DNA of 64,000 nucleotides from Dehalococcoidia bacterium (GCA_965219085.1 OZ244720.1:3136001-3200000); one strand, 5' to 3'; counted from the stretch's first letter, positions 34,869 through 42,101 are shown. Notes: generated by a model from the letters alone, not told the origin. Numbers and translations are program-made.

Positions 34869-35275
34869 CTGACGGCAGCAGGGGCGTGAGATACGGCATC
34901 GGGCGGGAAGCCGCCGAGCGAGCAGCGCCGATAGCATCTCACGTGCGCCGCCCGCATCCGGTGCCCGATGGTTGGTGGCGAGGCCCACTACGGCAACCCC
35001 GTCATTGCGTGCCAGGTTGTGCGCAGCGCAAGGCGGCACCAGCCCACCGTGGTTTCGCCAACTGGCCCCGTAAGTTCCTTCATCGGTGCCCGACCCGAAG
35101 CGCGCCGCACACCCTCCGATGGCACGCTGCCTGCCATATGGCGCTGATCTCGCAGCACAGGCGCAGAGGTCACAGCGTGCGGACCATGATCTGATGCCAC
35201 TCGAGCGGTTCCGATAATCCAGCGATCGGTGGTCCGGGGATCGAGCCTCCCGCGGCGCCCGCCTGCGGGCGAAGG

Positions 35276-35689
35276 CTACGAGGCCGACAAGACACGCCGA
35301 CCGTCAAACGGGCGGGGGGGCTTCACCCGGTCTTCGAGCCAGCTCACCAGCTCCGCGAACCGGAACGCGTTGGTCTCGAACAGCTTCATGAAGAACTCGT
35401 GGGCTGCACGGTCGTCGCAGTCGATGAAGTGGCCATTCCCGCGCAGGAAGACATCCGTGACGAAGAAGGCCACTCGCTTGTTCCCGTCCACGAAGGGGTG
35501 GTTCACGGCAAGGCTCTCCATGAGTGCCGCCGCCTCCTCGGTCAGGCTCTCCTAGTACCCGAGTTGCGGCCGCATCACTGCCGCCGCGAGGGCGCCTTCA
35601 TCACGGATCCCAGCACTGCCACCGAATTCGTCGATCAGGACGACGTGCATGGCCACGACTTCCTCGATCGTCGGGAAGTCGTGGGTCAC
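35276..35689 (-). pseudogene. doc: Doc/Fic-family toxin with in-frame TAG (35552-35554)
   Basis: NHPFVDGNKRVA motif; GTGA overlap with the antitoxin. Confidence 0.8.
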
Positions 35690-35913
35690 TTCGCCAAGAG
35701 CTCACCAAGGAGGCGATGTCGCTCGACACTCGCCCGGAAGTGCTCGATTATCTCCGGGCGGATCGTCTGGCGGGCCTTCTTCTCGAGATACCCACTCATC
35801 GCGTCTTCGAGCACTGCCTGGAAATGACGCCCTTCTTCCCGGGCAGCCGCTCGCAGCGCGGCCAGTAGCTCGGGCGATGCCTGGCTGGAAAACTTCTGGC
35901 GCGTCTGAGCCAT
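35686..35913 (-). CDS. Antitoxin of the Doc toxin (RHH-like)
   Basis: 75 aa, KFSSQASPELL, coupled to doc. Confidence 0.75.
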   Translation of the reverse strand: MAQTRQKFSSQASPELLAALRAAAREEGRHFQAVLEDAMSGYLEKKARQTIRPEIIEHFRASVERHRLLGELLAK

Positions 35914-36054
35914 CGCGCACCCCCCTCGCTGGTTGCTGTCCCTATTGTCGCGTCGGGCGATCCCGTGTCAAGAACCAGCTTGACGCCACGAGCTCATCGA
36001 GGACATCGGCGAGTGTGAAGGAGTCACCCCCGCAGCGTAGCCCCGATTCGGCGG

Positions 36055-36327
36055 TTACTTGCGTCGGCGCTCGGTCCAGGTCGCGTGCCGCGGCTGACCG
36101 GCTTCGCGGACACGATCGCGAAGCCGCCCGAAGTAGTCCGCATCGGCGGTGACTGCCTGCGGCGACGCCGCGCCTTCGAGGAACGGGCCGCGTAGGCGCT
36201 GGCGATCCCGGTCCTTGCGGATTAACTCACCGACGTACTCGCTTGACGAGCTGTAGCCGCGGGCGCTGACCTGCTGGTCCACGAAGGCCTTAAGGGCCGC
36301 GGGGAGCGATATGTTCATCGTGCTCAT
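36055..36327 (-). CDS. ParD-like RHH antitoxin (partner toxin lost)
   Basis: MNISLPAALKAFVDQQV..RGYSSSSEY. Confidence 0.75.
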   Translation of the reverse strand: MSTMNISLPAALKAFVDQQVSARGYSSSSEYVGELIRKDRDRQRLRGPFLEGAASPQAVTADADYFGRLRDRVREAGQPRHATWTERRRK

Positions 36328-36479
36328 GATGCAACGCTCGCAGGTTTGGCAAGCGTTGCCAATACGCCCCTCGGGCCTTGCACTGCGGATTCCCGGCGGA
36401 GGTCGCCAGCGCTACCCGACGGTGGGGCCAGGCGATCCGGTTGAACCGGCCGTCCTGCTGGAGATGCAGCGCCTGCTGC

Positions 36480-36962
36480 TCGCCCGGCACGCCGCTCGAG
36501 GAGCACGGCGGGCGCCTGCGAGACCAACAGAACTAGATCGGAGGCTCCGGGTACAACCCGTGCGCGGCGGCGTTCGTGCCGCCACCCCCGGAGGTCGTGG
36601 AGGACCTGTTCGACGACCTCTGCGCCTTCGCCAGCACCGATGCGTGGCCACCGCTGGTCCAGGCAGCGATCGCGCAGGCGCAGTCCGAAACCATCCACCC
36701 GTTCGTGGACGGCAACGGGCGCGTGGGCCGTGCCCTGATCCATTTGGTGCTGCGGCGCCGCGGGCTGGGGCTCCGGGTCCCACCACCCATCTCGCTGGTG
36801 CTGGCGACGTGGCCGTCGGCCTACGTACGTCGGGCCGCCCGACAGCGCCGGAGCGCGCGACGGCTTCGAGCACTGGGTGGAGCTCGCCGCCGCGGCGTGC
36901 CTGCGTGCGGCGGGCGATGCCGCACGTTTCGAGGAGCGGGTGCAGGCGCTCCAGGCGGAGTG
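36480..36962 (+). pseudogene. Fic-domain protein fragment
   Basis: ETIHPFVDGNGRVGR; truncated by the IS1111-type element; start approximate. Confidence 0.8.
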
Positions 36963-37053
36963 GCTCGACCGTATGGAGTGACCGGCTCCGAGTTCGCAAA
37001 CTCGCGGGTTACAGACGCGAGGCATGCAGAGCCGCATGCGAAAGGAGCCGGTC

Positions 37054-38166
37054 ATGGAGATGACTACCACATACGCAGGGATGGATGCACACGTGCGGGC
37101 GATCCACGTGGCGGTGCTGGCGCCGGGGGCCGAGCGGCCCGAGGAGTGGCAGTTGACGAACGAGTCGCGCTCGGTGAAGCGGCTCGCGCAACGCCTGAAG
37201 CGCATGGCGCCGGGGCCGGTCGTGGCCTGCTACGAGGCCGGTCCGGGCGGCTTCGCGCTGCAGCGCCAGCTCGAGGCCGAAGGCATCGAATGCCAGGTGA
37301 TCGCGCCAGCGCTGATCCCCAGGCGGCCCGGCGACCGCGTCAAGACCGACCGTCGCGACGCACGGAAGCTCGCCGAGCTGCTGCGCGCGGACCTGCTCAC
37401 GGCGGTGCATCCCCCCACCGTCGACCAGGAGGCGGTGCGCGACCTCTGCCGGGCGCGCGAGGACGCCGTGACCGACCGCACCCGCGCGCGCCACCGCCTG
37501 GCGAAGCTGCTGCTGCGGCGCGGCATCGCCTACGACGGGCGGAACTGGACGAAGCGGCACCGCAACTGGCTGCTGACGCTGCGCTTCGAGCACCCGGCCG
37601 CGCAGGCCACCTTCGACGACTACCTGCGCGCGCTCGAGGGCGTGGAGGAGCGGCTGCGCGCGCTGGAGCAGGAACTGGCCGCGTGTGCCGCCGGCGACGA
37701 CTACCGCGAGGCGGTGGGGCTGCTGCGCTGCTTCCGCGGCATCGACACGGTAACGGCGCTGACGGTGCTGGCCGAGCTCGGCGACATCACCCGCTTCGGC
37801 AGCGGGCGGCAGTTGATGTCGTACCTCGGGCTCACGCCCAGCGAGTACAGCAGCGGCGCCCGTCAGCGGCGGGGACCGATCACCAAGACCGGCAACGCCC
37901 ACGTGCGCCGGCTGCTCGTAGAGAGCGCCTGGCACTACCGCCACCCACCACGGGTGGGGGTGGCGCTCCGCAAGCGGCGCGAGGGCCAGCCGGGCTGGGC
38001 GGTGGCGCTGGCCGACCGGGCGCAAGCCCGGCTCCACCGTCGCCACCGGCGGCTGATCGCTCGCGGCAAGCCGTCGGTGGTGGCGAACGTCGCCGTGGCG
38101 CGCGAGCTCGCCGGCTGCCTGTGGGCGGTGCTGCACAACAGCGCGGAGCAGCGCGCGGCGGCCTGA
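37054..38166 (+). CDS. IS110-family DEDD recombinase A
   Basis: GMDAH, CYEAG, KTDRRDA, SEYSSG, ITKTGN. Confidence 0.95.
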   Translation: MEMTTTYAGMDAHVRAIHVAVLAPGAERPEEWQLTNESRSVKRLAQRLKRMAPGPVVACYEAGPGGFALQRQLEAEGIECQVIAPALIPRRPGDRVKTDRRDARKLAELLRADLLTAVHPPTVDQEAVRDLCRAREDAVTDRTRARHRLAKLLLRRGIAYDGRNWTKRHRNWLLTLRFEHPAAQATFDDYLRALEGVEERLRALEQELAACAAGDDYREAVGLLRCFRGIDTVTALTVLAELGDITRFGSGRQLMSYLGLTPSEYSSGARQRRGPITKTGNAHVRRLLVESAWHYRHPPRVGVALRKRREGQPGWAVALADRAQARLHRRHRRLIARGKPSVVANVAVARELAGCLWAVLHNSAEQRAAA

Positions 38167-38377
38167 TGCAACGCGCCGCGGCGAAGGCGGAGACGGTGAT
38201 ACGCCGCTCCGGGGCTGGAGCGGATGGATGAGCGAGGACACGCTCAGGAGGATGCGCGGAAGCACTGTGCGGCAACGGCGCCTGGCGCCGCCAACCCGCG
38301 ACATCAGACGGCGAACCCTCCCGGCGAAGCACGGTCATGCGGCAAGGCCCCAGGCAACCCGACGTTCCTATAGAGAG

Positions 38378-39637
38378 TCAAGGGAGCGATCCGGCAGCCT
38401 CCCGCGCGGCGTGAGCGGCGAGGCGATTCGGGACAGAGGGATGCCCCGCTTCCAACCCCGCCCGCGCTGATCCGGGATCCGTGGATGCCCGTGTTGGCTG
38501 CCGTGGGTGCTCGCCGTCCACAGACGCGGGGGGCCCGCCCTCACAGGCGCGGGGGGCGCCGGGAGTCGAGCCGGGCGACAGCTGCGTGGCGTATCGCGCC
38601 AGATCGGCAGTGAGCGTTCGATAGAGCTGGCGAGCGACATAGCGCTTCAGGCAGCGGATGATCTCGCGTTTGGACTTACCCTCCGCAGTGCGCTTCGCCA
38701 CGTAAGCCCTGGTGCGGGCGCAATAGCGCAGGCGGACGAGCACGATCCGGTACAGCGCGCTGTTGGCCTGCCGGTCGCCGCCCGGGTTCAGGCGATGTCG
38801 CTGCGTGCGCCCGGAGGACGCCTCGAGGGGCGCGGCGCCGCAGAGCCGTGCGAAGGCGGCCTCGCTCGACAGCCGTCCGATGTTCTCGCCGGGGGTGACG
38901 AGTAACTGCGCGGCGTTCACGATGCCGACACCGGGCAGTGCGAGGGAGCCGGGTGCGACCCTCTCCACAAGTGACCGCAGCGCCTGGTCGAGATCGGCGA
39001 CCTCGCGGTCCAGCTCGGCGACGTGGTGAGCGACGCTGCGCAGCGCGAGCTTCGCGGCCTGTAGTGGTTGGTCGAGCCGGGCCCTGTCCGGACGGAATCG
39101 CGCGCACTGCCGCGCCTTCGCGGGCAGGGTCTGCTGCGGCAGCGCCTCGCGGAGTTCCGCCGGCGCCGTGGCGATCAGGTCGCGCAGCTGCAGCAGCGCC
39201 GCACTGCGGGCCTTGACCGCGGCTGAACGAGCATTTGCGAGGGTGCGGATCGACTCGACGACACCGTTCGTGGCCTTGGGCAGCACCTGCGCCGTACCCG
39301 CCAGCACCTGCCTCGCGGCGGCCTCGGCGTCGATCGGGTCTGACTTACCCTGGCGCCGGCGCGTGTGCCGGTGCGGCTGGCTGACCTCGCGCACATCCAG
39401 CCCCTGTGCGAGCAACCAGCGTGTGAGCCCGGCCCCGTAGGACGAGGCGCCCTCCACGGCGATCGTCGCGATCGTGCCGAACGCCTCCAGCCACTGGTGC
39501 AACTCCCGGTAGCCCCGCGCGGTCGCTGGGAACTCGGCATCCCCGAGTCTCTCTCCTCGATCGTCGAGTGCGACTGCGTGGTGCGTGCGGGAGTGGGTAT
39601 CCACCCCTCCGATGACACCGCTCCGCGTTTCCGGCAT
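38378..39637 (-). CDS. IS110-family DEDD recombinase B
   Basis: GGVDTH, AVEGASSYG, KSDPIDA, EASSG, GGDRQAN, RCLKRY. Confidence 0.95.
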   Translation of the reverse strand: MPETRSGVIGGVDTHSRTHHAVALDDRGERLGDAEFPATARGYRELHQWLEAFGTIATIAVEGASSYGAGLTRWLLAQGLDVREVSQPHRHTRRRQGKSDPIDAEAAARQVLAGTAQVLPKATNGVVESIRTLANARSAAVKARSAALLQLRDLIATAPAELREALPQQTLPAKARQCARFRPDRARLDQPLQAAKLALRSVAHHVAELDREVADLDQALRSLVERVAPGSLALPGVGIVNAAQLLVTPGENIGRLSSEAAFARLCGAAPLEASSGRTQRHRLNPGGDRQANSALYRIVLVRLRYCARTRAYVAKRTAEGKSKREIIRCLKRYVARQLYRTLTADLARYATQLSPGSTPGAPRACEGGPPASVDGEHPRQPTRASTDPGSARAGLEAGHPSVPNRLAAHAAREAAGSLP

Positions 39638-39666
39638 GCTCGCCGTACCTTCCTGCGGGGAGGTGT

Positions 39667-39851
39667 GTGACCGGGTCGTGGTGGGCGGACAGAACAGCGA
39701 TGAGGCAACTCTGAGCCAGGTTCCTATGAGGTCACGCCACCCGCGGCCCGGTCACTTGGTGGATGCGAGGAGGGCGGAGCCGACACGTCGGATTGAGGAC
39801 ACCGCTCGCGGTGGGTCAGCGAATATCTAGGTCAGGCTCCGTCCTTCTCGC
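39667..39851 (-). ncRNA. Bridge RNA of IS110 element B
   Basis: Two stem-loops with internal loops; target guides at 39820-39827 and 39786-39795, donor guides at 39720-39727 and 39695-39700, each matching the actual junctions. Confidence 0.85.
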
Positions 39852-39984
39852 TGTGAGTATCTTCGCTGCGAATATCAGAGTGACACGTCGTCGAAGCAGC
39901 GCCCTCGTTCGTCCATCTCCCCCCGTTCCGGAGCCGGATCGCCACGACCACCGCCGGTGCTGCTTGACAGCCGGTCACTCCATA

Positions 39985-40858
39985 TCAGCTGTACGTCGCG
40001 AAGAGCGCGAGCTGTGAGCCGGGCGTCGGCTTCACGCGCCGCACGATGAGCCGCACCGCGCTGGCGTCCGCCATGTGCTGGAACGGCGTGTACGTCGTCT
40101 CGGCGACAGCGGCGCCGCCCGGCAGCCAGTACGGGATCGGCGTCCAGTCCGCTTCCGGTATCGCCTCGATCAGCGTGCGTACGTTCGGCTGCTGGCGAAT
40201 CGTGACCGAGAAGCGGACGTCCTGCTTGCGGCAGGCGGCGACGACCCCGTGGTTGTAGAAGCCGCTGTCGGCTCGCATCGTGAGCTGCCCGCTCGCCCCG
40301 GCGTCGCGGACCCGCGCCACCGTCTCACGCAGGAAGTGGGCGGCGCCGCGCCGGGTCCCGCTCCGGCCGCCCATGCGCGGGCGAGCAATGCGCGGCTGAG
40401 GCGGTCGAGCTGGCGGACGTGGCCCCAGCGGAAGCTGCGCAGGAAGGTCCCGAGGGTGGACGGCGCCTTCACGGTGCAGCCGAGCACGCGCCCGGCGCCG
40501 CCGGCGCGCATCGCATCGGCGTCGTCGATGCAGTCGCCGCCGGCGAGCGCCGAGGCGACCAGGGTCAGCAGCTTGTCGCCGGCGTTCGCCCGCCCCGGCG
40601 CGTCACCGAGGTCGAGATAGCGCTCGGCAAGATCGGGGAGACCGAGACGACCGGCGAGCGTGGCGGGGAGCAGCAGGCCCGCGTGGTCCACGAGGCGGTC
40701 GTCGTCGAAGGCGATGTCTATCCGGTCGGGGCTGCTCGCTGCTAGCATCGAATGGTTGCTCCCTGTGGCTCGGACGTGATTCGTACAAAACCATTGTCCC
40801 AGCTACAGCGAAGCACCCAACCTCAGCCGCTCATGAGCTCTTCTTCGGTGGATCAGGG
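39985..40858 (-). mobile_element. IS1380-family 5' remnant with internal deletion
   Basis: FDDDRLVDHAGL, GGDCIDD, APSTLGTFLR, RADSGFY; IR tcggtggatcaggg at 40845-40858. Confidence 0.85.
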
Positions 40859-40963
40859 GTAAGCAGCATTGCCTATGGCCGATCGAGGTCGCAGTCGCCC
40901 AGTCCCTGAGGCGGGGGGCCTTCGCATCGGCCTCCGACGAGGCGACCATCACGTCGCGGCTGT

Positions 40964-41455
40964 CTAGTCTCGGTGCAACCAGCGCAACGGCAGAAGTACG
41001 CCGCCCGCCTGGAACTCGTGGCCCTCCGGCGGTCGACGCTCGCCTGGCGTAACCGCGGTCCGGTCGACGTATACCTCGCCATCGCGGACCTCGACGGCAA
41101 GGCGATCGAGACCGCGCGGCAAGGAAACGCGCGGGTGCGTTTCGTGGCCCGCCAGGTCGTACGTGAACGGCCGGCATGTGTCGAGACACCAGCCCGTGCG
41201 GCCGTGGAGCGAGAAGTCCGGGCGGTACGCCACGACGCACTCAGGGTCGGGATGGGGAACCCTGGCGACCAGCGCTGGGAGCTTGCCGGCGTCAACACGA
41301 ACGACGTGAAACGCCAACGGCTCGACGGCGTCGCCGAAGGGCGTGACCGAACCCGGAGGGAAGTCCTCGATGGAGCCCACGTCGACCCATGGATCCTTGC
41401 CTATCCACACGACGTTCCAGACCGGCGCCCTGGCTGAGGCGGTGAGCAGGCGCAT
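40964..41455 (-). CDS. Degenerate Rieske-like protein
   Basis: VDVGSIEDFPPG...YDLAG...LDRLAVEVRDGEVYVD fold signature; CxH and CxxH ligands incomplete. Confidence 0.5.
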   Translation of the reverse strand: MRLLTASARAPVWNVVWIGKDPWVDVGSIEDFPPGSVTPFGDAVEPLAFHVVRVDAGKLPALVARVPHPDPECVVAYRPDFSLHGRTGWCLDTCRPFTYDLAGHETHPRVSLPRGLDRLAVEVRDGEVYVDRTAVTPGERRPPEGHEFQAGGVLLPLRWLHRD

Positions 41456-41543
41456 ATCGTCTGAGCAGAAATGCTGCCGGTGTCGCTACACTGGATGCCC
41501 AGCAACGACACCGCCCGGTGTCTGTCACACAAGGACGGCAGAG

Positions 41544-42101
41544 ATGGCCGAATGGTGGGAGGGGCTTACTGGCCCCCTCCAGGCGTTCTACATGATCGGG
41601 CTCGTCGCCGCCGCGTTGCTGGCCCTGCAGCTCCTGCTGCTCGCCTTCGGGTTCGGCGGCGATTTCGAGCTGGGTGACGATGCCGGACTCTCCGGGGCTG
41701 TGTCGTTCCGAGGGCTGACCGCGTTCTTCTTCGTGTTCGGCTGGGTCGGCGTGCTCATGGAGGAGACGAACGCGCCGCTCCCCGCCTCCGTGGCCGTTGC
41801 CGGCGTGGCCGGAGCGCTGGCCATGGCGGGTGCGGTCATCATGTGGCGCAAATTCGCCAGCCTCGAGGCGGACGGCTCTCTCGACTACGCCACTGCGGTT
41901 GGAACCGTTGGGAGTGTCTACGTCACTGTTTCCGACGAACGCGCCCGCCCGGGGAAGATCATGGTCATGGTGCAGGGCCGGCTTCGGGAGGTGGCCGCCT
42001 TCGCGGAGCCAGGCAGTGGCGCAGTGGCGCCCGGAGCGCGCGTCGAAGTCGTCGACACCATCGACCCGTCCACCGTGCTGGTTCGCCCGCTCTCGGGTTG
42101 A
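41544..42101 (+). CDS. NfeD-like membrane protein
   Basis: SFRGLTAFFFVFGW, C-terminal OB-like region, upstream of flotillin. Confidence 0.8.
   Translation: MAEWWEGLTGPLQAFYMIGLVAAALLALQLLLLAFGFGGDFELGDDAGLSGAVSFRGLTAFFFVFGWVGVLMEETNAPLPASVAVAGVAGALAMAGAVIMWRKFASLEADGSLDYATAVGTVGSVYVTVSDERARPGKIMVMVQGRLREVAAFAEPGSGAVAPGARVEVVDTIDPSTVLVRPLSG

Follow-up and report, generated by a model that had tools for sequence, protein, structure and literature searches.

A bridge-RNA insertion sequence of the IS110 group probably programmed for the guide-RNA gene of an IS1111-group element in a Dehalococcoidia bacterium

A 64,000-nucleotide (nt) stretch of the genome of a Dehalococcoidia bacterium (GCA_965219085.1, OZ244720.1:3136001-3200000; hereafter the window, with positions counted from its first letter) contains two nested insertion sequences (ISs), an IS110-type element, B, lying inside an IS1111-type element, A. 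The analysis led to the reading that B is an IS110-group, bridge-RNA-guided IS, the target-binding loop of which is programmed for a site of about 16 base pairs (bp) in the DNA encoding the donor-binding loop of the IS1111-group element A, and the probability of this reading is put at about 0.8. The recombinase and the RNA of B would recombine the right end–left end (RE-LE) junction of B into the target CAACCCGCGAATATCAG. Such an insertion would place B antisense in the 3′ strand of the inner stem of the A RNA, and would end the production of complete bridge RNA from that copy. The features of B are as follows:

38362..39868, minus strand: element B, IS110 type, 1507 bp (with a one-base ambiguity, 38361-39867), delimited by empty sites and by contigs that skip it
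38378..39637, minus strand: open reading frame (ORF) of the B recombinase, 419 amino acids (aa), Pfam PF01548 (1.3e-21) and PF02371 (3.2e-15)
39765..39851, minus strand: predicted target-binding loop of the B bridge RNA, based on the fold, the flank matches and the shuffle test
39827-39819, minus strand: left target guide of B, GAUAUUCGC
39795-39789, minus strand: right target guide of B, CAAUCCG, followed by ACGU at 39788-39785
39667..39755, minus strand: predicted donor-binding loop of the B bridge RNA, based on the fold and the matches to the ends of B
39727-39720: left donor guide of B, AUAGGAAC
39700-39695: right donor guide of B, UCGCUG

The ORF of B contains the DEDD_Tnp_IS110 and Transposase_20 domains of an IS110-group recombinase and gives weak matches to the solved chains of IS621 and ISCro4 (E-values of 5e-4 and 1e-4, respectively). 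Residues D13, E62, D100 and D103, together with an SSG motif, are what we take to be the family signature in its translation. The element has a left end of 231 nt (39638-39868) and a right end of 16 nt (38362-38377), the long-left, short-right layout of the IS110 group, lacks long subterminal repeats, and reads CAGCGAAG...CTATAGGAACGT in its own orientation. The ORF, which ends 16 nt from the right end of the element, is about 70 residues longer than those of relatives of 345-382 aa and has a tail rich in Pro, Ala, Gly and Arg (window 38378-38600).

The fold of the 231-nt leader of B (−92.1 kcal/mol) consists of two stem-loops whose internal loops contain the guides. In the first loop, positions 39820-39827, the reverse complement of GATATTCG and GAUAUUCG in RNA sense, match the right flank (39869-39876) at 8/8 positions, while CAAUCCGACG (39795-39786) is complementary to the left flank CGTCGGGTTG (38355-38364) at 9/10 positions, the lone difference being a U.G wobble; both matches had been pointed out in a first-pass annotation of the window and are borne out by reading the sequence. 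GAUAUUCGC is located on the 5′ side of this loop in the same sense as the left half of the target, and would thus pair with the bottom strand. In the second loop, AUAGGAAC has the same sense as the right end of B, and UCGCUG is complementary to the left end, so that the donor loop pairs with both ends of its own element (ATAGGAAC... and CAGCGA). These matches exceed chance: among 200,000 shuffles of the leader, both target matches were found in 80 and both donor matches in 6. Staggered-strand pairing to target and donor alike is the pattern of the two-loop IS110 RNA. According to the part of PMC11208160 that was available, bottom-strand pairing in IS621 involves 8-9 nt on the 5′ sides of the RNA loops, and top-strand pairing 4-7 nt on the 3′ sides, and the strand pattern of B agrees with this geometry as presented in the accessible parts of that paper and of PMC11208158. 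The left junction of B (39855-39880) is nearly palindromic, TTCGC A GCGAA; hence UCGCUG, the complement of the left end of B, also occurs in the part of the RNA around the left target guide.

The host element and its RNA comprise the following features:

36968..39988, plus strand: element A, the IS1111-type host, 1514 bp excluding B, with the ends (ACCGTATGG... at 36968 and ...CCATATCAG at 39988) set by comparing seven copies or fragments within the genome of the window
36972..36987: left subterminal inverted repeat of A, TATGGAGTGACCGGCT, 16 nt, partner at 39969-39984, arms complementary at 16/16 positions
37024..38166, plus strand: ORF of the A recombinase, 380 aa, Pfam PF01548 (5.1e-20) and PF02371 (1.8e-22)
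38247..38321, plus strand: predicted target-binding module of the A RNA, based on alignment A1 and on the hand-drawn and RNAalifold structures
38260-38266: right target guide of A
38302-38307: left target guide of A
38322..38361, plus strand: 5′ part of the predicted donor-binding module of A, with the right donor guide ACGGUC (38331-38336), the 5′ strand of the inner stem and a hairpin
39869..39893, plus strand: 3′ part of the same module, severed by B, with the last CG of the inner stem, the left donor guide and the 3′ strands of the closing stems
39871-39878, plus strand: left donor guide of A, AAUAUCAG

The ORF of A, the true start of which may be an ATG near 37060, also encodes DEDD_Tnp_IS110 and Transposase_20 domains, and shares 27% identity with the ORF of B over 279 residues. 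Its stop codon at 38166 is followed by about 310 nt of non-coding DNA. The recombinase, the subterminal inverted repeats and the non-coding region 3′ of the gene place A in the IS1111 group, and the layout matches that given for this group in the available parts of PMC11187229 and PMC11208160.

Single-sequence folding of the 3′ region of A yielded unstable long-range folds, which were replaced by a structure based on an alignment of 15 distinct uninterrupted relatives from eight genomes (alignment A1). In the hand-drawn structure, 97.2% of the cells pair, mostly invariantly, with one compensatory pair (7 GC versus 7 AU), and RNAalifold independently recovers the same two modules. Both modules are internally homologous and consist of a closing stem, a variable guide, AUGCGG, a hairpin, CAACCCGCGA and a second variable guide. 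In module 1, the 5′ guide is the reverse complement of the right flank of the copy that carries it, in at least six types, including (a slash marks the junction) UACACCU with AG/GTGTA, GUACAGCU with AG/CTGTAC, CUCACCCU with AG/GGTGAG, AGCCUGCU with AG/CAGGCT and CGACAACCU with AG/GTTGTCG. In module 2, the two guides covary with the ends of the element, each in three variants: the 3′ (left donor) guide with the right end (AAUAUCAG with CATATCAG, GAUAUGAG with CATATGAG and GAUACAAG with CATACAAG), and the 5′ (right donor) guide with the left end (ACGGUC with GACCGT, AGGGUC with GACCCT and ACUGUC with GACAGT). Because the guides match the flanks in one case and covary with the ends in the other, target binding is assigned to the loop of module 1 of A and donor binding to that of module 2. 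In both modules the right guide lies 5′ of the left one, with guides fitting the element's own target and ends; this agrees with the reversed order, a top-strand match 5′ of a bottom-strand match, that the accessible part of PMC11187229 gives for IS1111 elements.

In two A-family relatives (L158:1085-1650 in genome G082 and L161:1023-1708 in G085), the bridge-RNA module is present twice in tandem, at a spacing of about 380 nt and with guides that differ. The first module of L158 has a target guide that fits the right flank, and the second a donor guide that fits the right end.

B interrupts module 2 of A in the 3′ strand of the inner stem (CCG/CG), two bases before the left donor guide AAUAUCAG. 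It is antisense to its host, and the two parts of the split donor-binding loop are 1.5 kb apart. In the orientation of B, the target reads TGATATTCG/CGGGTTG. Its left half corresponds, as reverse complement, to the donor guide of A, which must match the right end of A, and its right half, likewise as reverse complement, to CAACCCG, the invariant motif of the inner stem; the chosen site is constrained both by the ends of the host and by a conserved stem. The first-pass annotation had placed the site within the donor-binding loop, overlapping the donor guide, and this is right, the loop assignment being confirmed by the guide/end covariation in three variants. Its further suggestion, that the host cannot easily change this guide, is true in part, but A variants in which donor guide and right end have changed together do exist.

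A protein search of 99 genomes of the family, with the genome of the window designated G000, revealed B-like copies, 92-97% identical at the protein level, in G076 and G004 as well. In total, eight copies are available: two in G000, four full copies in G076 and two truncated ones in G004, the complete copies numbering six. All eight are found at the same point and in the same orientation, ...CAACCCGACG-B-A(A/G)TATCAGAGTGAC, antisense to an A-family host; the second G000 copy, with two mismatches, occupies this point in another A copy. Between the three genomes the guides do not vary, the one change being in a base that follows the right target guide (G to U in G076), and the insertion site in G004 has one mismatch in its left half. 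The four copies in G076 are 100% identical, whereas their hosts share only 58-71% identity in the left 300 nt and 56-67% in the right 115 nt, with the exception of loci L025 and L028, which represent one host type at two chromosomal sites. These hosts also differ in their chromosomal flanks and target guides, and the target guide of each one fits the flank beside it. Since identical B copies reside in diverged hosts with differing target guides, B has moved among at least five or six host lineages. The earlier claim that B is inserted on target in the guide-RNA gene of A is thus supported by 8/8 copies in at least five diverged hosts.

A scan of GTDB, with one genome per species, detected relatives of B above 90% identity only at loci L068, L069 and L077, all others being at most 56% identical. 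Relatives of about 50% identity in G003, G002 and G012 have an A-like recombinase gene within about 1.5 kb at 0/20 loci, and therefore do not share the target of B. Contigs 98.6-99% identical to B were found in four public runs from four studies, which were examined for B and its junctions. Two exact metagenome scans, with a 23-nt stretch of the B right end and a 24-nt stretch of the B target loop, gave no match. Public RNA runs contained at most 0.08 of the words. Within G000, the 15-bp site, with up to one mismatch allowed, is confined to the two A copies that are still empty. Seven genomes of other Dehalococcoidia families (L148-L154, L156) each contain one or two occurrences of the string CAACCCGACGATCATCTA or a near variant of it. 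These matches were rejected as B sites, being unlike the site beyond the first 10 bases, and probably belong to a conserved unrelated gene.

The window has CG at 38363-4 and at 39869-70, and the first-pass annotation had described B as a 1506-bp element between two identical CG cores, inserted into caacccgaCGaatatcag. The two CG dinucleotides are there, but the boundaries are not. All uninterrupted sites in the 99 family genomes (26/26) read CAACCCGCGAATATCAGAG, i.e., CAACCCG-CGAATATCAG, without the extra A; a search of 401 genomes of the class likewise gave no empty site containing the A. The paralogous motif in module 1 of A, CAACCCGCGA, also lacks the extra base. Five empty copies in G076 (044 type, four copies; 058 type, one copy) equal the occupied L021, L025 and L028 over the left 150 nt except for this base, and in contigs from three of the four runs (X1, X4 and X8; three studies) position 38360 is followed directly by 39868, a skip of 1507 bases with a one-base ambiguity. 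Because the empty sites lack the extra A and the contigs skip 1507 bases, the extra base belongs to B, and what is inserted measures 1507 bp and is not a 1506-bp element bounded by CG cores. Precise excision as a way to restore the host, also proposed earlier, would need a site that is absent from all empty copies.

The 1506-bp version, in which B would hit only rare extra-A variants of A, has some attraction, as CAAUCCGACG is complementary to CGTCGGGTTG at 9/10 positions and as, with CG cores, everything would resemble IS621. Even so, it is highly improbable. Apart from the empty sites and the contigs, which skip 1507 and not 1506 bases, three host types have same-genome sisters that differ solely by the missing base, and the same one-base insertion would be needed separately in six host lineages. 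Moreover, the RNA base opposite core position 8 is U in G076, despite the four identical copies there.

No duplicated CG core flanks B, which means that the donor core and the target core are not the same. Two registers fit the data, either a CG target core with a GT donor core or a GC target core with a TC donor core; the left target guide favors one register and the left donor guide the other. An attempt to fix the register from the approximately 50% identical relatives in G003, G002 and G012 was abandoned, since their left boundaries could not be placed without empty sites. In either register, the RNA following the right target guide (..G-AC-GU or ..GA-CG) complements the right-end core of B and the two preceding bases, a pairing of the post-exchange, or handshake, kind described in the available part of PMC11208158, where the top strand of IS621 is cut after core position 9. 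The right end of B, ...GGAACGT, carries its own core base or bases, unlike the target core, and this mismatch is present in 6/6 complete copies.

Exchange through a Holliday junction with unequal cores would produce a heteroduplex, from which about half of the descendants would carry the target core on both sides and would then be stable; this arrangement was found in 0/6 complete copies of B. Predominantly top-strand insertion and single-strand copy-out of IS110 elements are reported in the accessible parts of two preprints (10.1101/2025.10.25.684509 and 10.64898/2026.08.31.748434). Under transfer of the top strand only, the right-end core of B would be passed on as part of the element, and the target would never renew it. 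The lack of a duplicated dinucleotide is therefore best explained by top-strand-only (copy-paste) transfer, a mechanistic step that we infer from the copies at hand. The core mismatch in every complete copy bears on the dispute between double-strand Holliday-junction exchange and top-strand copy-and-paste, and, for tool building, suggests that core identity is not strictly required in the clade of B.

Several observations weigh against B being a programmed IS110-group element of this kind. An identical core dinucleotide in donor and target, a defining feature of the IS110 group, is replaced in B by a one-base overlap. The z-score of the leader fold is only −2.18; the leaders in all three genomes have the same guides and thus provide no covariation for the B RNA; the left donor guide has one or two mismatches in every register tried; and the 3′ side of the donor loop shows no clear complement to the core or handshake positions. 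Searching 35000-42000 against Rfam gave no relevant covariance-model match at E-values up to 1, and scanning 38100-40100 for promoters and terminators gave none, with no sigma-70-like promoter in the integrated state. Contigs of the four runs, which cannot show absence, contained no circle junction or "goes back" joint. Only three genomes hold B, and its activity may be low, because two perfect empty sites in G000 are unoccupied. Finally, the B-bearing A copy of the window is itself recombinant. Its target guides, AAGCACU and CAUCAG, fit neither flank, and so the two B copies of G000 are not two clean events.

The recombinant nature of this copy is evident from its parts. Positions 38155-40832 are 98.7% identical to G000:C1:1082887-1085570, including the same deleted remnant of a third IS, IS-C, whereas over the 190 nt to the left of B the identity to the second G000 locus drops to 87%, and the left junction is CG where other copies have AG (window 36954-40832). 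The two G000 copies thus share the right flank to 40832, with the same 172-bp deletion in IS-C, and differ in their left parts, from which it follows that recombination has acted at the B-occupied A copies of this genome. It could accordingly be supposed that B entered A once and that the composite then spread, whether A copies exchanged it through homologous recombination or gene conversion or A carried B as cargo; the presence of one host type at two sites, L025 and L028, might also reflect composite transposition. As a general explanation, a single origin is improbable. The G076 hosts 015, 044 and 058 share identity over only about 12-45 nt beside B on either side, yet B is 100% identical in them; each host's target guide matches its own flank; and the guides of B fit the site far beyond chance.

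The third IS lies directly to the right of A:

39989..40832, minus strand: remnant of IS-C, an IS with a DDE transposase, once host of an A copy

An intact copy of IS-C encodes a 459-aa DDE transposase (DDE_Tnp_1_4, PF13701, 9.3e-58) and reads GGCGTGGT-AG-CTGTACG, inside the ORF, at the point where the second A copy is inserted; the guide of that copy, GUACAGCU, matches this site (loci: window 39989-40832, G000:C1:1081858-1084723 and L175). Empty A copies lie in IS-C-like sequence in 9/11 cases in G077 and 4/6 in G080, the flank motif GAAGAGCGCGAGCTG having been judged by eye. Thus, B in A in a DDE transposase gene makes up a three-level programmed nest.

Regarding the consequences for the host, it is reasonable to suppose that an occupied A copy loses its own RNA, and presumably its mobility with it. 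The occupied copies keep their ends, and a full-length recombinase ORF is retained in 4/6 of them (the window copy W, L021, L025 and L028); c2 has an internal deletion, and for L015 the alignment covers only residues 233-377. Intact sister A copies exist for three host types (044, 058 and u-type), and bridge RNA works in trans according to the accessible part of PMC11208160; both points weaken the earlier proposal that B disables the mobility of its host. The occupied copies may therefore still move in trans, carrying B, and L025 and L028 could be such a case.

These same facts (RNA supplied in trans, intact sisters, intact host recombinase in 4/6 copies) speak for a less antagonistic explanation, a possible though not the favored one, that the multi-copy, conserved and dispensable site serves B as a harmless landing pad. 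Bridge RNA and recombinase supplied in trans by intact sisters would then leave the hosts little harmed, and B may profit by riding along. In these genomes A is in turn directed against a DDE transposase gene, and it is known, to judge by the titles of Muller 2001 and Partridge & Hall 2003, that members of the IS110 family can target repeats or the ends of other elements. The RNA lost through insertion at this point, however, is one that the copy requires in cis, and the W-type host of the window has no intact sister in G000.

A stronger form of the programmed-insertion reading would make B an obligate parasite of RNA-guided transposons, at the top of a three-level chain (B on A on a DDE IS) and spreading across the whole host family. 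This extension is rather unlikely. B would then recognize the one part of the guide-RNA gene common to hosts with the same ends, whatever these hosts target. Were it true, the mismatched right-end core would be natural in vivo evidence for top-strand-only IS110 insertion, and those A variants in which donor guide and right end have changed together would represent escape lineages in an arms race; an arms-race reading of A and B was discarded because there are too few lineages.

Among other nested selfish elements, twintrons are an example of a self-targeting parasite at a fixed site inside another. Their chemistry and element class differ from those of B, and the likeness is one of analogy only. 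Closer to B, IS1383 reportedly inserts into the inverted repeats of IS1384, and IS4321 and IS5075 are said to insert into the inverted repeats of Tn21-family elements. Like B, these are, on what their titles convey, site-specific IS110-family elements with a conserved functional part of another transposable element as the target; unlike B, which is inserted in DNA encoding a host guide RNA, they target terminal repeats recognized by proteins. Thus, IS110-family elements that target other mobile elements are already known, and the guide-RNA gene as the target is what differs here. Searches of the accessible open-access literature, supplementary tables excluded and 10.64898/2026.08.14.744561 included, yielded no IS110-family element aimed at the bridge- or seekRNA gene of another.

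Compared with the IS621/IS110 group as described in the available parts of PMC11208160 and PMC11208158, B has the same kind of recombinase (DEDD and Tnp domains), a 5′ two-loop RNA and a very short right end; the 3′ side of its RNA complements the right half-site over 6-7 nt and is followed by donor-end-complementary, handshake-like bases. Unlike in IS621, the donor and target of B have no identical core, 1507 bp are added with a one-base overlap, the site used in nature belongs to the guide-RNA gene of another element and not to a repeat of the repetitive extragenic palindromic (REP) type, and the protein similarity is weak. A resembles the IS1111 group with a 3′ seekRNA or bridge RNA (PMC11187229, in the part available) in its subterminal repeats, 3′ non-coding region and variant-specific targets. 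Unlike in the described IS1111 elements, the A RNA has two internally homologous modules (AUGCGG...CAACCCGCGA), and the relatives in G082 and G085 have tandem modules. If B is guided as proposed, it would provide a natural guide-against-guide case, a bridge RNA programmed against the gene of another bridge RNA. It would also point to a layered ecology, in which RNA-guided ISs can nest parasite-on-parasite in IS-rich genomes, and offer a system for studying trans-complementation and hitch-hiking.

Two further observations concern the neighborhood of A and its other B-bearing copy. The second B-bearing A copy in G000 (G000:C1:1082658-1082887) has an internal deletion in the recombinase gene, equivalent to window 37768-38003. 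An ORF at 36311-37063 has no match in Pfam; it overlaps the region 36690-36730, just upstream of the left end of A, which translates to HPFVDGNGRVGRA, a motif that we take to be Fic-like, in an apparently disrupted gene.

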